Part shown: piece by piece, positions 44,958-50,747 of the stretch
How the letters are laid out: the number at the start of each line of letters is the position of its first letter
Numbering within the stretch: position 1 is the first letter of the stretch
Origin: Candidatus Poribacteria bacterium
Lineage (GTDB): Bacteria > Poribacteria > WGA-4E > PCPOR2b
Assembly (NCBI GenBank): GCA_965208675.1
Contig: OZ242351.1
Span: 4,828,039-4,892,038, forward strand
Length of the DNA: 64,000 nt
Reading direction: 5' to 3'
Program-made: the position numbers and the translations under genes
Notes under the pieces: model-generated
Seen by the model: the letters and a program-made list of their open reading frames with translations, nothing else
Databases searched by the model: none
Told to the model about the DNA's origin: nothing

Positions 44958-46712
44958 TCACCCATGCACCGCGTCGTATGACGCATTTTTGGATGTCGCC
45001 GCTAAGTATTCAATTTTCCGTTTGTATACCTCAGTAACTGCTGCGGTTTGGGTGATTTGCTGCGCCCAAGCGCCTTCGGTAGCGTCGGGCGCGTCGAGGT
45101 ATTTGCTGGCGGGGAAGGCACAGAACCGATCCCAGAGTTCTTCAGACAATTCTCTGTTGAAGGCGAGCCAACCGTTTTGGATTGGGGCTTCCAGTGCTTC
45201 GATTCGATAATACTTGTTTTTGGTACGCGTGACAAATTGAAGGGGTTTGGTGACTTTTTTGGCTATGGATACCGCATCGTAGTGCCGCACGAAATTTTCT
45301 CGCATGTCGCCGTGCGTATCTACTAAAACTTCGCAACAGATGTGAAATTCGGGATTTCTGACTCTGGTGCTCATGAAGGATTGAATTGAGATATACGCCT
45401 CTAGCAAAGCTTCGATTTGCATTTGGCGATTGCCTCGATCCAGCCAGTCGCTGAACACATATCCGTATGCGTTGCCGGTGCCGTAATCGTCTTGATATCC
45501 ACCATCGGGCACCGGTTCCCAGACAATAGTAACCACGGCGGCGAATGCGTTGTCAATTTTCTTGTCATTCACGCCCGCCCAGTCGAGGAAGACCGTGGCA
45601 CCGCTTAGCTCGCCCCAGCCAACCAACCTTCCGTCGGAACGGCGGAATCCAGCCTCGGTGACATCAAATCGTATAGCTTCGTCCATGTTGAAGATTGCTA
45701 GCGAACGGTCTGCCGGAAAGTTTTGATATTCGCGAAGCACATTTGCATTACCTTCATCGAACGCTTTCTCGCGAAGGGCACGATAAGGCCATTTTTCGGG
45801 CCAGGTCTCAACGACGCCCTGGGTCATTTGTTTTTCGCGCTTACCGTAGAAATCGTCGAGTTTTTGCGCTCGCTGGAGTGGTTCTATAGACTTATCGATA
45901 AAGATTTTGCGGAAGTCTTCCCACAGATTCTCATAAGTCGGATGGATTAAAGTTGCCGGTTCTTCGATTGCACGTATGAATATAGTTTCCCAGCTTGCAC
46001 TGGCTTTCAATTGCATTGAGATAGCGTCCGAAGATTTAACGGTATCGACGTTGATGAAATTGGTGTAGTCATCGCCGCATTGCATGAGATCGCTATTCCA
46101 CCACCTACTATCTTTGATTACAATGTTGGGATTCATCAGCGCTTCAAAGTCGTCGATGTCGTCTGCGACGACGAGGGAGGGGCGCCAGCCTTTATAAAGT
46201 GCGCCGCGGATTTTTCCGCCGCGTCCCTGCGCCATCAGGCGTACGCCGTTCGCCGTCTCGGTACCGTCCATGCCCCAACACTTGCCCTTCAGCTCTGGGA
46301 ATTTTTGTTCGATGTAGTAGCGGATATCCTGAACACGATCGGCTGCAGTCGAATAGTTGCGGCTGACGATAAGAATGAATCGATCGCTCGTCACGCCGAT
46401 TGATTCGTAAAGCTCTTTGTACACAATACAGTGCAGCGGGTAGATGACCGCTAGGATGGTGCTTTTGGCAGATCCGCGCGGTGCGATAATATTGACTTTT
46501 TTCCCTCTCGCGCCAAACGGGATTGCGTTAAAGAACTTGTCGTGGTGTTTACCGAACCGTTTCCGCACGATTTCGGGAAACTCGAAATAGGTGAACACAC
46601 CGAGCGACCAGAAGCAGGCTACTTCGATATCGCCGCCGCTGAAATTCACTTTAACGATTAAATCGATTTCCTCCTTGACGGTCAAGCCGTCAAGCGCCGT
46701 TTTTATGTCCAT
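44958..46712 (-). CDS. Phage terminase large subunit-like protein
   Basis: Walker A APRGSAKST, GGKIRG, Walker B LVVADDID, REYQN, RNase H-like FLDWAG...DNAFAA...CCE...K..RIEALE...FP.SKYLDAPDA. Start placed at MDIKTA (46712), overlapping the upstream stop. Confidence 0.8.
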   Translation of the reverse strand: MDIKTALDGLTVKEEIDLIVKVNFSGGDIEVACFWSLGVFTYFEFPEIVRKRFGKHHDKFFNAIPFGARGKKVNIIAPRGSAKSTILAVIYPLHCIVYKELYESIGVTSDRFILIVSRNYSTAADRVQDIRYYIEQKFPELKGKCWGMDGTETANGVRLMAQGRGGKIRGALYKGWRPSLVVADDIDDFEALMNPNIVIKDSRWWNSDLMQCGDDYTNFINVDTVKSSDAISMQLKASASWETIFIRAIEEPATLIHPTYENLWEDFRKIFIDKSIEPLQRAQKLDDFYGKREKQMTQGVVETWPEKWPYRALREKAFDEGNANVLREYQNFPADRSLAIFNMDEAIRFDVTEAGFRRSDGRLVGWGELSGATVFLDWAGVNDKKIDNAFAAVVTIVWEPVPDGGYQDDYGTGNAYGYVFSDWLDRGNRQMQIEALLEAYISIQSFMSTRVRNPEFHICCEVLVDTHGDMRENFVRHYDAVSIAKKVTKPLQFVTRTKNKYYRIEALEAPIQNGWLAFNRELSEELWDRFCAFPASKYLDAPDATEGAWAQQITQTAAVTEVYKRKIEYLAATSKNASYDAVHG

Positions 46713-47307
46713 GATGTTCGCCTTCAATTCGATCAGAATCCGCATCGAGCGACGTGTTTTTCTCGGCTGCCGGCAGCGGAATGCTGGGGCTGTTTTCGGG
46801 GTAAAGCAGCCGCCACTCATCGCGGCGCTGCTCGAGATGGTTGCGGTCGTCGGCGGCTGTTGAGTCTTTGTTGTTTTCGGCCGGAACGGCGATTGATTGC
46901 AAGGCTTTGTGCATGTCCGATAGTGTCCTCATGAATGCGATTATGTCTTTGGGGGCACTCAATTCCATCGGCAAAATTTTGGTTGATTTTACAATTTCCG
47001 ATAGCTTCAAAAACCCGTCAAACATTAGCTCCGTGGCATGTCCGGCACCGGCTTCAATGAGTTGGTCTCGGTGTGTCCTAAAGTGCCCTTTTGTGTCCTC
47101 AAACCGGAGTTTCCATTTTTTTGAACACTTTACATGGTACGGGTTGCACGTCCGGATTGCGTTTTTTATTTGATGCCTCGGCGCAACATTCCAGTGCGGG
47201 TGGGTTGAAAGTAGATAATCGATGACGCGGGTCGTAGAGTAGCCGATTGCGTACAAATCGACAACGTCGGTTCGTTCTTCGTCGGTCAGTTTAATTTTTG
47301 CAGCCAT
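46690..47307 (-). CDS. Putative terminase small subunit / DNA-binding partner
   Basis: Directly upstream of and overlapping terL. N-terminal HTH-like segment (LTDEERTDVVDLYAIGYSTTRVIDYL), helical middle, AAGGAG RBS. Assignment is positional. Confidence 0.5.
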   Translation of the reverse strand: MAAKIKLTDEERTDVVDLYAIGYSTTRVIDYLLSTHPHWNVAPRHQIKNAIRTCNPYHVKCSKKWKLRFEDTKGHFRTHRDQLIEAGAGHATELMFDGFLKLSEIVKSTKILPMELSAPKDIIAFMRTLSDMHKALQSIAVPAENNKDSTAADDRNHLEQRRDEWRLLYPENSPSIPLPAAEKNTSLDADSDRIEGEHHGHKNGA

Positions 47308-47407
47308 GGTGTGCTCCTTGAAATTCAGTGGTAGGATTGAGAATCGAGGCTAGGAAGCCTCTCCCACAATCGAGTGAGTAAAATTGTGGTTGCAACGACC
47401 ACCGATC

Positions 47408-47446
47408 AAAAAAAAAGCGAGGGTGGACGCCGTACAGCGCCCTCGC
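47408..47446 (-). terminator. Intrinsic terminator in the leader upstream of the terminase pair
   Basis: Minus strand GCGAGGG...CCCTCGC followed by T9. Confidence 0.65.
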
Positions 47447-47592
47447 CTCGCCGTTAAACATATTTTAGTATTCCAGTTGAAACAGTAATGAGCAACTAAT
47501 ACTGACTCGTTACCGCTTCTCGCACACCCGCCGTAGAGTGTTGAGATTGATAACCGTTAGTTCAAATCCTCCATGTTTCGGGAATTTCCAAG

Positions 47593-47622
47593 ATTATGCG
47601 CAAAGGTTATTCAGGTTGTCAA
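47593..47622 (-). promoter_or_regulatory. Candidate promoter upstream of the terminase leader
   Basis: Minus strand TTGACA-18bp-CATAAT. Confidence 0.5.
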
Positions 47623-47774
47623 GAAAAAATGCATGGGTTTGCAAAAAAAGTTGATTATTGGTCAGAGGAGGGTGGTAATAGCATTTGCGGGGGTCTGGGG
47701 TGTGATTTGTGTGAATGAATGAATGATGGGCTATGATTGGGTGGTGGTGGTTTATCGTAGTTATGTGCGATTAA

Positions 47775-47815
47775 GAAACCGGGTTTTGAAGAAATAGTAT
47801 CAAATGACCTGATGA
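47775..47815 (+). repeat. Left inverted end
   Basis: GAAACCGGGTTTT-gaagaaata-GTATCAAATGACC-tgatga. Confidence 0.85.
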
Positions 47816-48018
47816 TAGTTGGAATGCGCGTGGTTATTGACTTCGAGCCATCATCAAATGAGCGAGTTAGGTTGGCTTAACTAGCCTATCCTTCAAGAAA
47901 TTCATTCGGTTTGGCTAGAAGCATGACAAAGTATATCAAAAAGGCTATCGCGTGCCAAGCCGATGCCAAAGAAAGAGACGTTGTTTTCCCAAGTCTAAGC
48001 AATAATAGGCGTATTCTG

Positions 48019-48912
48019 TCATTGCAAGTCTCCTGTAGGTTTGGAACTGGACGGCACGTTGTTATCTTTGTCGTCGTCCAAGTTTGCGTTGATGTCATTG
48101 AGCGAATGTTGAGGAATAAGGTCGAGATATTGAGAAATGACGCGCTTGGAAAGTTTGGTAATCTGAGAGATTTTGTCAATATCATCAGTAGCGGTGCGAA
48201 CAATCTTAACCGACTCATAATCACGGATGTATCGGTCAACAGCTTCTTTGGAGTGCTTGGTCTTAGCCGCAATGGTTGGCGTCAGATACCCTTGTAGATA
48301 AAGGGTGATAATCTCTTTCTTGTGGGTAATTGCTGCTGACAAATCGTGAATGTTGCCGCGGGTGGGCAAGATTTTTCCACTGGTGCTTTGCCACTCATTG
48401 ACATACGCACTGACCACCGGGTCTCGGACGTTGAGCAACACAGCCAGGTCTAGTTGAGTCAACAATGCCCCTTGGTCATAGGCTTGATAACACCATCGCA
48501 CCAATCGATGAATTCTGAGTTCACGAGAGCTGAAGCCGCTGTAATAGTGTTCAATGTCCTCGGGGGCGAGAAAGCTTAAAACCACAGGTTTCATGCGGGT
48601 TTTAACGATTGACTTGGCTTTCTGTGGATATTCGTCAATCGGTACAGCCATCCAAACCAGTTGACCATAGCTAAGCAGTCGTTCGTTAGGGAGTTGTTCG
48701 CCGGAGGCTAGTTTATCAAGTGGCAAGCGAATCAGGAAATAGTCCTCAATGGTTTTGACGATGTCATCGACAATGGCTTTGGCAGTCACTTCGCCTTTGT
48801 CATACCCATAGGAATTGATAAAGCGATGAATCAGCAACTGCCGCAACGATTTATCATTGATACGTCTGATTTTCTTCTCGTTGATTTGGGTTCGCGTCAA
48901 TGATTTACTCAT
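48019..48912 (-). CDS. DUF1670-like protein B
   Basis: RLVRWCYQAYDQGALLTQLDLAVLL...PTRGNIHD...THKKEIITLYLQGY...KHSKEAVDRYI. Confidence 0.8.
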   Translation of the reverse strand: MSKSLTRTQINEKKIRRINDKSLRQLLIHRFINSYGYDKGEVTAKAIVDDIVKTIEDYFLIRLPLDKLASGEQLPNERLLSYGQLVWMAVPIDEYPQKAKSIVKTRMKPVVLSFLAPEDIEHYYSGFSSRELRIHRLVRWCYQAYDQGALLTQLDLAVLLNVRDPVVSAYVNEWQSTSGKILPTRGNIHDLSAAITHKKEIITLYLQGYLTPTIAAKTKHSKEAVDRYIRDYESVKIVRTATDDIDKISQITKLSKRVISQYLDLIPQHSLNDINANLDDDKDNNVPSSSKPTGDLQ

Positions 48913-49709
48913 GAGTGCTCCCCCTTTTTTTCATCAACGGGTTCAGGACGAAGTAAAGTCGTCATTCGCTCTGTATGTTTGTATTCATCATACAGGGCTA
49001 GGTACTCACGAATCAATCGGTCAGAGAGATGGGTGATGAGCCGTATCTGTTCCTTTGGAAAGTCTTGATGATGGAGCGTTGCTACCTGAGTGAAATTACG
49101 CAAGTATCGCAACACGGCGCGTTCGGTATGGTTCGTCTTTCGCTCAATGTCAGTGAATTGATAGCCTTTAAAGTACAGTTCTAGGATTTGGGTTTTATGA
49201 GAAATGCCGGGGCCCATGTCGTGCTTGGCGCCGCGAGTCATTACAAAGAACCCTTGCTGTTTCAACTGTCGGATATCGCGTTTGACGGTCGCCGGGCTGG
49301 AGGTTAATAGCACGGCTAAATCTTCATAGCTGAGCAAAGCGTCTTGTTCATAGGCTTGTTTGGTTAACCGTAAGATTCGATGTCGTCTGAGTGCTGCAAG
49401 TCCATTGTTGGCTAACACCTCAAGGTCGGTGTGCACATCATTGAGGGTGAGTTGGCAGGAGACCTTTTTGGCTAAGGCGATGTGTTTACCTGCGGGTTCG
49501 TCGGCGGCTACGGCTTCATAGCAGATTTGGCCTGATGTGAGTTTGATATCGGCGTGTTGGGCAAAGTAGGAAGAAATCTGATTATAGTAGGCTTCGGCAA
49601 GAATAGGCATCAGATTGAAGTCTGACGCAATCTTCTGAATAATTGCCGCTCTCGCCGTCTTTGATTCCAGACGATTGATACCGTAGTTTGAATGACGTTG
49701 TGGTTTCAT
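48909..49709 (-). CDS. DUF1670-like protein A
   Basis: RILRLTKQAYEQDALLSYEDLAVLL...MTRGAKHDMG...SHKTQILELYFKGY...NHTERAVLRYL. GGAGG RBS before ATG 49709; ATGA overlap with protein B. Confidence 0.8.
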   Translation of the reverse strand: MKPQRHSNYGINRLESKTARAAIIQKIASDFNLMPILAEAYYNQISSYFAQHADIKLTSGQICYEAVAADEPAGKHIALAKKVSCQLTLNDVHTDLEVLANNGLAALRRHRILRLTKQAYEQDALLSYEDLAVLLTSSPATVKRDIRQLKQQGFFVMTRGAKHDMGPGISHKTQILELYFKGYQFTDIERKTNHTERAVLRYLRNFTQVATLHHQDFPKEQIRLITHLSDRLIREYLALYDEYKHTERMTTLLRPEPVDEKKGEHS

Positions 49710-49766
49710 AATGACCTCCATGGATTCATGGTGATTGATGGAAATACCATCTGTTATCAGTTTAGC

Positions 49767-49807
49767 TCATGGGGTCATTTGATACAAACTATAAAAAACT
49801 CGGTTTC
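49767..49807 (-). repeat. Right inverted end
   Basis: tcatgg-GGTCATTTGATAC-aaactataa-AAAACTCGGTTTC (plus strand). Confidence 0.85.
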
Positions 49808-50747
49808 AAATAAATGTCGCGACTCGGAAATCGCTCTTACAGGGGGTGATTTCTACATTCCAGACGATAGGATTCTGCGCTTGACCCAACATACAAGAAT
49901 TCTTCTTAATCGACATCCCCAAGTACCACCGCCTGAATTGGGGTTTATGTTTCACCTGCCGCCATTGCCTTCCGCCAATGCGACTAACACTAAATTTTCA
50001 TAGTTAACTCCTCTGTCCACTTGCACGCTAACTAACCGGAGATCGGTTTTAGACTGAATTCACTCCGTTTTTGGATTTAATCAAACTCTCAAGATACATC
50101 GGAAAACTATGAAATTTTTACAGAATCGAAATTAAACATTACATAACCGCTCTCGTTTTTGAAACATTTACCTAAGGTGCATTTGTAATAGCTTTATCGT
50201 TGGATTTCACGAGTCCACTCAACCATCCTACAAAGATTGTCTGAACTGTGATTAATATGATTCAATGAACACGGCTCGGCGCCGCTTGAGAGATTATTTC
50301 AACTATTACAACCGAGAGCGGTCACATCAATCGCTCGAATACCGTACACCTTACGAGGTGTATTTTCACTAACTTCAGGCGTTTAAGTTTGACCAGAATT
50401 AGTCGGATTTTATTACTTAAATCTCGTTAGTTGCTGTCTAAAGGATGGGGGTAAGTAATGATTGAGAATCGTGCGTTGTAGAATTGCCGAAACCTTTTGT
50501 TAAACTTCATTCAGATTGTGGAAGTAGCAAATTAACAGTTTGCGATACTGAAGTGCGAGCGAGTATGAGGGTAAATCGACTCTTCCGCCGGATTAGGCAT
50601 TTAACCAATCTATGTATGTTCGAACGTATGTTCGAACCCTCGCAATCTTGAGAAGCGTTGGGTTAAGGACAAATCTATCGCTGTAGATTTCTATCGAACT
50701 TCCAATTTGGTCATCTGATTTCATTCGCTCAGAAGTCTCGCCCCGGC

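Follow-up and report, generated by a model that had tools for sequence, protein, structure and literature searches.

A mobile DUF1670 gene pair of Poribacteria found in hairpin loops and at the last codons of secretion-tail genes

The window analysed here is a stretch of 64,000 nucleotides from the genome of a Candidatus Poribacteria bacterium (assembly GCA_965208675.1, contig OZ242351.1, positions 4,828,039 to 4,892,038), a genome assembled as a single 4.89 Mb contig. The subject is a pair of DUF1670 genes (Pfam PF07900) at window positions 47775–49807, here called orfA and orfB, together with the DNA ends that surround them. An earlier note, made from the sequence alone, had described two paralogous open reading frames (ORFs) of 266 and 297 aa coupled by an ATGA overlap, and this gene structure stands, on the minus strand, with the orfA stop and the orfB start sharing ATGA at 48909–48912. 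The orfA frame is open over 48909–49721, and a start giving 270 aa is also possible; the alternative ATG at 49709 has GGAGG upstream and gives the 266 aa that database relatives of OrfA also have. Both proteins match PF07900 far above its curated cut-off of 25 bits, orfB with 205.3 bits (E = 1.1 × 10−60) and orfA with 212 bits (E = 9.1 × 10−63), and they align to each other with 34% identity over 186 residues. The features of the locus are as follows.

47775..47791, no strand: target DNA, the 5' arm of a hairpin (47775–47787) and the first four loop bases (47788–47791); absent from the second copy
47792..49795, genes on the minus strand: mobile unit, the extent common to the copies
47792..47797, plus strand: left tip AAATAG, which reads as a replacement last codon (Lys) and stop at tail-type targets
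47797..47809, no strand: left inverted-repeat core, 13 nt; terminal 30 nt conserved
47810..47856, no strand: left-end subterminal imperfect palindrome, retained in solo-left-end remnants
48019..48912, minus strand: orfB, DUF1670 paralogue, 297 aa
48909..49709, minus strand: orfA, DUF1670 paralogue, 266 aa from the ATG at 49709, with a DeoR-like helix-turn-helix (HTH) match beside PF07900
49710..49795, minus strand: leader and right end, in which the right repeat core can pair with the orfA ribosome-binding site and start codon
49773..49785, no strand: right inverted-repeat core, 13 nt, followed by a 7-nt tip; last 26 nt 98% conserved
49795..49807, no strand: target DNA, the 3' arm of the hairpin, its first A lying inside an ambiguous AAA

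The limits of the unit come from comparing copies. A second copy in the source genome, at G000:C1:2044729-2046732 and thus 2.8 Mb distant, is 99.85% identical over 2004 bp and has different flanks. Identity from copy to copy is confined to 47792–49795 and the sequence outside is unrelated, so that the limits common to the genomic copies define a mobile unit of 2004 bp with a net insertion of 2001 bp. The 41-bp inverted ends of the earlier note, 47775–47815 and 49767–49807, are indeed there, 78% complementary and with a perfect 13-nt core, but they place the boundaries wrongly. Their outer bases, 47775–47791 and 49795–49807, belong to a repeated REP-like (repetitive extragenic palindromic) hairpin, of which they form both arms and the start of the loop. 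They are target DNA, since the second copy lacks them (17 and 12 nt) and the hairpin is repeated without the element. The 41-nt arms are a composite, a target stem of 13 nt with its loop bases fused to the repeat that belongs to the element. That repeat is the perfect 13-nt core with 3–4 tip bases, the two ends differing by a 4-nt indel. The 5' arm of the hairpin is found in 26 uninterrupted hairpins of the genome and also stands beside 14 other copies of the element, which belong to two further genomes. Across 9 copies with an overall identity of 78–95%, the left end is 92% conserved in its terminal 30 nt. The DUF1670 pair lies between the same ends in 36 non-redundant metagenome elements as well as in 26 Poribacteria copies, and because of this conservation they are not a chance feature.

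The two-gene unit is almost certainly mobile, and 47792–49795 is an intact, recently active insertion sequence (IS) copy. PF07900 is present in 9 of 41 related genomes, always as adjacent gene pairs, with 1–5 full copies in each genome that bears it (4, 5, about 4–5, 2, 1 and 1, plus two fragments); a further Poribacteria metagenome-assembled genome has 10 full copies. Diverged copies with 75–96% identity align along the entire 2004-bp unit, both terminal bases included, and many database relatives lie on contigs of ~2.0 kb, as collapsed repeats do. The search that the earlier note had proposed, for further copies with the same ends in different flanks, is thus answered by the second copy and by the copies in relatives, and its idea of an IS-sized mobile element is borne out by the copy number, the varied flanks and the empty sites described below. 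The picture of a single-copy pair syntenic in relatives does not hold, and other DUF1670 pairs, those of the 36 metagenome elements, do have the inverted ends.

Shorter forms of the element also exist. Miniature derivatives with both ends and no genes are found in the source genome (L003, 177 bp) and in two same-genus genomes that have no full copy (L042 and L044). Solo left ends are found as well, and the first ~63 nt of the left end survive in the remnants L038–L041. In the right flanks of L013 (from G018) and L089, the right end of a full copy is followed immediately by a degenerate left end, which looks like the insertion of a newer copy ahead of an earlier one; here the left junction re-creates a usable target.

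The two DUF1670 genes are the whole of the coding content. They are the sole ORFs conserved among 9 diverged copies, in agreement with the earlier statement that there is no cargo, and no third ORF is conserved there. A hidden third gene was considered in the 128-aa ORFs on both strands of 47886–48297 and rejected, as these are not kept in relatives. Four copies of G006 (including L017 and L024) have orfB broken at the same place by an in-frame TGA or frameshift while orfA is intact, which is either a decayed lineage or programmed recoding. Contigs from RNA libraries (X17) cover parts of the element, a coverage that does not show transcription, and the depth of the element relative to its flanks in metagenomes is not a copy number. 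A search of the published literature, supplementary files excluded, under DUF1670, PF07900, IS with type IX secretion, and Poribacteria with IS found no description of the family.

How the element chooses its sites was read from the left junctions of the 26 full-length Poribacteria copies. Hairpin loops account for 15 of them, the last codon of genes bearing a particular C-terminal tail for 9, and the other 2 lie elsewhere, one of these being the second copy of the source genome, which is intergenic. In the hairpins the insertion is always four bases past the 5' arm, whatever those bases are. At the tail-type sites, the last residues of the gene read like ...TRKM.L.K. Six left flanks were scanned, and in each of them the invaded gene end matches FlgD_ig above cut-off; all 6 also match Por_Secre_tail, the type IX secretion sorting tail, at E values from 1 × 10−8 to 3 × 10−4, 2 of them above cut-off. 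Type IX-type tails are known in Poribacteria, where the Por machinery, by the same report, was not found (PMC3909097). The source genome has 42 tail-type ORF ends with a Lys codon, 22 AAG and 20 AAA, and five then run into degenerate left ends.

The orientation is uniform: the left tip abuts the invaded gene, and the gene's own last codon and stop lie beyond the right tip. The junction sequences show that the left tip supplies a spare last codon and stop, by which the invaded gene stays whole. The left junction is AAA and TAG in all the Poribacteria copies. On the right, AAA or AAG is followed by the gene's own stop, with AAG in L019, L042, L044 and L009 and also in L072, L075 and L122. Because the left codon is fixed and the right codon is AAG in several copies, AAA at both junctions is not a 3-bp duplication. 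The earlier note had seen no flanking direct repeat, which overlooked the AAA present at both junctions; of this AAA, the comparison of copies allows at most 2 bp (0–2 bp) to be a target duplication.

The metagenome elements extend this comparison to pairs with 58–96% protein identity and lengths of 1687–2055 bp. The left codon of the 36 is AAA in 27, CGA in 5, AAG in 2, CAA in 1 and TGA in 1. In the 30 elements whose right-hand stop is visible, the codon is the same on both sides in 17 and agrees in its first two bases in 23. The strict tail pattern is passed by 21 of the 36, and several more look tail-like by eye. The simplest rule is that insertion takes place exactly before the last codon, with 0–2 bp duplicated.

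The hairpin that forms the other target is itself a dispersed repeat. It occurs as 26 exact uninterrupted copies in the source genome, compared to 0 for a reversed control pattern, and its commonest 32-nt form is the window site minus 2001 bp. It is part of a longer repeated unit, seen at window 49796–49850, where ~50 nt past the right arm recur in more than 25 places at 84–92% identity; some of the longer units in G002 are in tandem arrays with a spacing of 489 bp. Several secretion-tail genes of the source genome G000 (e.g., at C1:3824745, 3810710 and 3629585) have the same REP-like hairpin within 35 nt past the stop, so the two kinds of target are often neighbours. By eye, no complementarity is seen between the leader of the element and the hairpin target.

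An empty allele of the locus itself had been asked for, and a candidate comes from a metagenome. A contig of the sponge metagenome run X14 joins 47791 to 49793, omitting 2001 bases (with 3 ambiguous); on it, 184 nt of the left flank of the locus (5 differences, 8 gaps) run straight into the right hairpin arm. We regard this contig as moderate evidence for an empty allele, as it has just 21 nt past the joint. No orthologous empty allele was found in three same-genus genomes, because the intergenic region there consists of short repeats and is not collinear.

The right end also has a fold of interest. The leader and right end fold as DNA at −13.2 kcal/mol (z −2.8), and the consensus RNA fold of 9 copies reaches −20.9 kcal/mol with 22 pairs, nearly all invariant and 1 compensatory. 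The pairing of the right-end core with the orfA ribosome-binding site could form only in transcripts that enter from outside, and would then silence read-through expression; other insertion sequences avoid read-through activation in a similar way. The left-end hairpin was tried as a structured element and rejected, its single-sequence fold being no better than shuffles (z 0.03 and 0.23); the left-end palindrome has a consensus fold of −5.0 kcal/mol with 1 compensatory pair.

The DUF1670 family is large. OrfB has 1541 relatives at E ≤ 1 × 10−3, the family forms 1247 clusters at 50% identity, and the search also matched in Methanosarcina acetivorans, an archaeal control genome. Natural fusions contain two DUF1670 modules (about 500–570 aa, ~25 proteins) or three (about 930–950 aa; P0250, P0253, P0255 and P0261 have 930–952 aa). 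A Pfam scan of 12 fused relatives found no domain besides DUF1670 and HTH families. These fusions support a joint action of the paralogues and argue against a missing fused catalytic part. When OrfA is aligned with 76 cluster representatives, R163 is the sole invariant residue, and G78, D99, R118, D134, G164, G170, H175, H198, Y206, F210 and Y240 are near-invariant; a motif TRG-x3-D-x-G-x3-(S/T)HK is kept in both paralogues. A PHROGs search of both proteins gave 'transcriptional regulator' families only, tblastn of OrfA against 72,556 plasmids gave no match, and a PADLOC scan gave nothing meaningful, with one CARF row at E = 0.008.

Structure prediction covered full-length OrfA and its N-terminal domain alone. 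The AlphaFold2 model of OrfA has a predicted local distance difference test (pLDDT) score of 90.7 and consists, in order, of three helices, a beta-hairpin whose tip bears a conserved Glu-Pro-Ala-Gly-Lys, a long helix, a winged HTH at 107–168 and two further HTHs at 172–259. For the N-terminal domain modelled alone (pLDDT 78.7), the top Foldseek rows are HU and IHF, with E = 0.1–0.5, probability up to 0.87 and target template modeling (TM) scores of 0.44–0.49, all below significance. In VIA, HU and IHF are the sole whole-domain matches, with Z = 4.5, 3.9 and 3.5 at a root-mean-square deviation of 10–13 Å. The domain is possibly HU/IHF-like, which is a weak lead and not a finding. Look-alikes of OrfA outside PF07900 in the ESM Atlas reach 0.80 at best and are small archaeal HTH proteins, which gives no lead. 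A complex prediction for OrfA with OrfB scored 0.27 (mark 0.32), which says nothing either way.

The objective is then to say what moves the element. We tentatively prefer the reading that the OrfA/OrfB pair itself performs strand exchange, while thinking it somewhat short of probable. OrfA and OrfB would work together as a hetero-oligomer, joint action being suggested by the ATGA overlap and by the natural multi-module fusions, and each subunit would have possibly an HU/IHF-like arm domain and three HTH domains. The complex would bind the two end cores, pair them and recognise the target, and would carry out strand exchange through an active site not yet recognised, for which R118, R163, H175, H198, Y206, Y240 and the motif TRG-x3-D-x-G-x3-SHK are candidates. 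A heterodimeric core of the IHF type would be consistent with two paralogues being needed and with a preference for hairpin or cruciform DNA, as far as sub-threshold fold matches may guide us. The full proposal, that the DUF1670 pair is a strand-transferase of a new class with an IHF-like arm, HTH modules, an Arg/His/Lys/Tyr active site and conservative base-precise insertion, is possible but carries appreciable doubt.

A number of observations weigh against catalysis by the pair. Pfam finds only DUF1670 and HTH families in OrfA and OrfB, with no transposase or recombinase domain, and no NCBIfam transposase model (IS1, IS3, IS5, IS110, IS200/605, IS630 and others) scores above cut-off; the best, IS1 to OrfA, has 15.5 bits against a cut-off of 100 (E = 0.012) and covers the HTH stretch only, and orfB has no match at all. 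The earlier statement that no DDE, HUH or serine recombinase motif and no named family can be recognised is upheld by these searches. A PDB profile search gives HTH-type chains only. Foldseek gives no match at E ≤ 0.001 for either OrfA model, and VIA-align gives DNA-binding folds only, at Z ≤ 6.8, such as TrpR, NiaR/DeoR/BirA-type winged helices and Mor/C. No DDE, HUH, serine or tyrosine catalytic fold is among the listed structural matches of the two OrfA models. The near-invariant residues sit in or between HTH elements and may serve DNA binding only. The hairpin and tail-gene targets share no obvious sequence beyond the A-rich junction bases, which is awkward for a protein that purely reads sequence. 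G001 and G003 hold short derivatives and many solo left ends and no DUF1670 gene; those of the derivatives that were read are all diverged, at 76–88% identity, and are uninformative on present activity for that reason. In four genomes the left-end-like motifs outnumber the right ends, 12, 17, 21 and 12 versus 2, 2, 4 and 1, which is not fully explained. That the pair is the mobilising enzyme, as the earlier note had it, we therefore only infer, the recognisable domains being all of DNA-binding type with no catalytic fold among them.

The alternative that survives best is that OrfA and OrfB only bind, bend and target DNA, while the DNA is cut and rejoined by a host recombinase, topoisomerase or replication or repair activity. 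This is how integrative elements that rely on the host's Xer recombinases work. All the recognisable parts of the proteins (the winged HTH, the HTHs and the weak HU/IHF-like N-terminal domain) are DNA-binding or DNA-bending folds, the searches above turned up neither a fold nor a family of nuclease or recombinase type, and a duplication of 0–2 bp resembles conservative site-specific recombination. Set against this is the breadth of the family: with 1247 clusters and a match in an archaeon, any helper enzyme would have to be near-universal, and no candidate for it has been identified. Furthermore, the 13-bp cores are 12 bp apart in the abutted junction, which does not look like an Xer site. We consider host catalysis a possibility to be taken seriously, though a doubtful one.

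A non-autonomous element moved in trans by the transposase of another IS, with the DUF1670 genes as cargo or regulators, would account for the short derivatives that persist in genomes without DUF1670 genes. We find it improbable. In the source genome the ends and interior of the element match only its own two copies and the one miniature derivative, and the single look-alike motif traced further belongs to an unrelated IS5-type element, whose coding end it is. Genes and ends are also kept together across the whole 58–96% range of protein identity of the 36 metagenome elements, which is unexpected of cargo. A non-mobile duplicated two-gene regulatory cassette kept by descent draws on the regulator-like matches in Pfam and PHROGs and on some database names ('biotin operon repressor'), but is hardly credible for genes that are patchy and multi-copy, with near-identical copies in unrelated flanks, empty sites, conserved ends and miniature derivatives. 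The anatomy of 47775–49807 with 41-bp terminal inverted repeats and no target preference, whatever the complementarity of its arms, is practically untenable given the second copy, the 26 hairpins without the element, and the tail-site copies, whose quite different flanks run up to the same tips.

Returning to the pair as the moving agent, we compare it to established systems. In behaviour the element is closest to the REP-targeting insertion sequences, to Tn7 at attTn7 and, for the lack of duplication, to IS200/IS605. Its proteins do not qualify it for any of the named families tested. The REP-targeting elements ISPpu9, ISPpu10, ISPsy8, ISPa11 and ISRm19/22 are described as inserting repeatedly and specifically into small extragenic palindromes as safe sites (PMC1525189), as the DUF1670 element also does. 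They encode a recognised transposase, whereas Pfam and NCBIfam find none in the DUF1670 element, and unlike them it has a second target in the last codon of tail-bearing genes. For IS110/IS1111, Pfam gives no DEDD/Transposase_20 match, and the leader does fold; ISPpu9 belongs to the IS110 family.

Tn7, when directed by TnsD, makes an orientation-specific and harmless insertion at a conserved gene 3' end, guided by a sequence-specific DNA-binding protein, and the likeness to the DUF1670 element is in this orientation-specific insertion at a conserved 3' end with the gene unharmed. However, Tn7 uses the catalytic and regulatory proteins TnsA/B/C, duplicates 5 bp and enters the DNA downstream of the gene, whereas the DUF1670 element has two HTH proteins only, duplicates ≤2 bp, and inserts inside the reading frame with a replacement codon and stop. 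IS200/IS605 elements share with it no or minimal duplication, a fixed orientation beside a short target word, palindromes in subterminal position and a liking for hairpins of REP type; of these traits the single orientation is found here, and the duplication is resolved no further than 0–2 bp. They differ in having an HUH Y1 transposase and ends that are not mutual inverted repeats, while the DUF1670 element has no HUH protein and a 13-bp inverted core. With IS630 and Tc1-mariner, a 2-bp duplication would be one possible reading in common, and HTH_23, HTH_28 and HTH_29 weakly match the C-terminal HTHs of DUF1670; but IS630 has a DDE domain behind its HTHs and duplicates TA, and the DUF1670 proteins end after the HTHs.

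Two further comparisons concern the proteins. IHF, a recombination accessory and a heterodimer of DNABII paralogues, is like the DUF1670 pair in having two paralogous subunits and Pro-Gly-Lys at the tip of a beta-hairpin; it differs in that the fold matches are below significance and in that the DUF1670 proteins have three further HTH domains and are encoded by the element. Integrative mobile elements exploiting Xer (IMEX), such as the CTX phage, are likewise mobile DNA without a recombinase gene of their own, none being recognised in the DUF1670 element, but they use a single chromosomal dif site, whereas here there are dozens of dispersed sites and the ends do not resemble dif.

Other repeats and genes of the neighbourhood are noted for completeness. 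A motif like the repeat core, with 9 occurrences in the genome, was rejected as a trace of the element, being the coding end of the unrelated IS5-type element mentioned above. The latter is ~860 bp long with a 276-aa open frame (stop to stop) and has 9 copies, e.g., G000:C1:784303-785200. Window 50256–50460 is a repeat of ~200 bp that recurs at 85–96% identity in many places of the source genome and G002 and looks like a miniature mobile element. Repeats of 45–50 nt at 47335–47382 and 47408–47460 have dozens of copies at 84–97% identity in all four same-genus genomes, and the summed contig depth of run X8 over 47300–47400 is 3737, compared to 42–72 nearby. Window 44958–47307 encodes a phage terminase large subunit (PHROG 38, E = 6 × 10−41) and, upstream of it, a 205-aa ORF without a family match, beside housekeeping genes; the first 809 bases of window 46900–50700, comprising the 5' half of the 205-aa ORF and the spacer behind it, are found twice in G002 at 92% identity. 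At 50614–50637 there is a perfect tandem duplication of a 12-nt word.

The transposase is the basis on which insertion sequences are classified, and a few catalytic classes are thought to cover all of them. In the DUF1670 element, widespread and clearly mobile, none of these classes is recognised. Either a domain of unknown function conceals a new DNA-joining enzyme, or the elements of an entire family hijack a host activity, and either would be new. If the pair is catalytic, it would be a further transposase or recombinase class beside DDE, DEDD, HUH, serine and tyrosine, one that is compact and naturally site-specific. An insertion that is base-precise, oriented and gene-repairing amounts to natural safe-site targeting, and the element would be a compact candidate for genome-insertion tools. 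In annotation, DUF1670 pairs labelled as repressor or hypothetical should be read as mobile DNA. In the Poribacteria, such pairs also point to two insertion hot spots, the REP-like hairpins and the family of secretion-tail genes.

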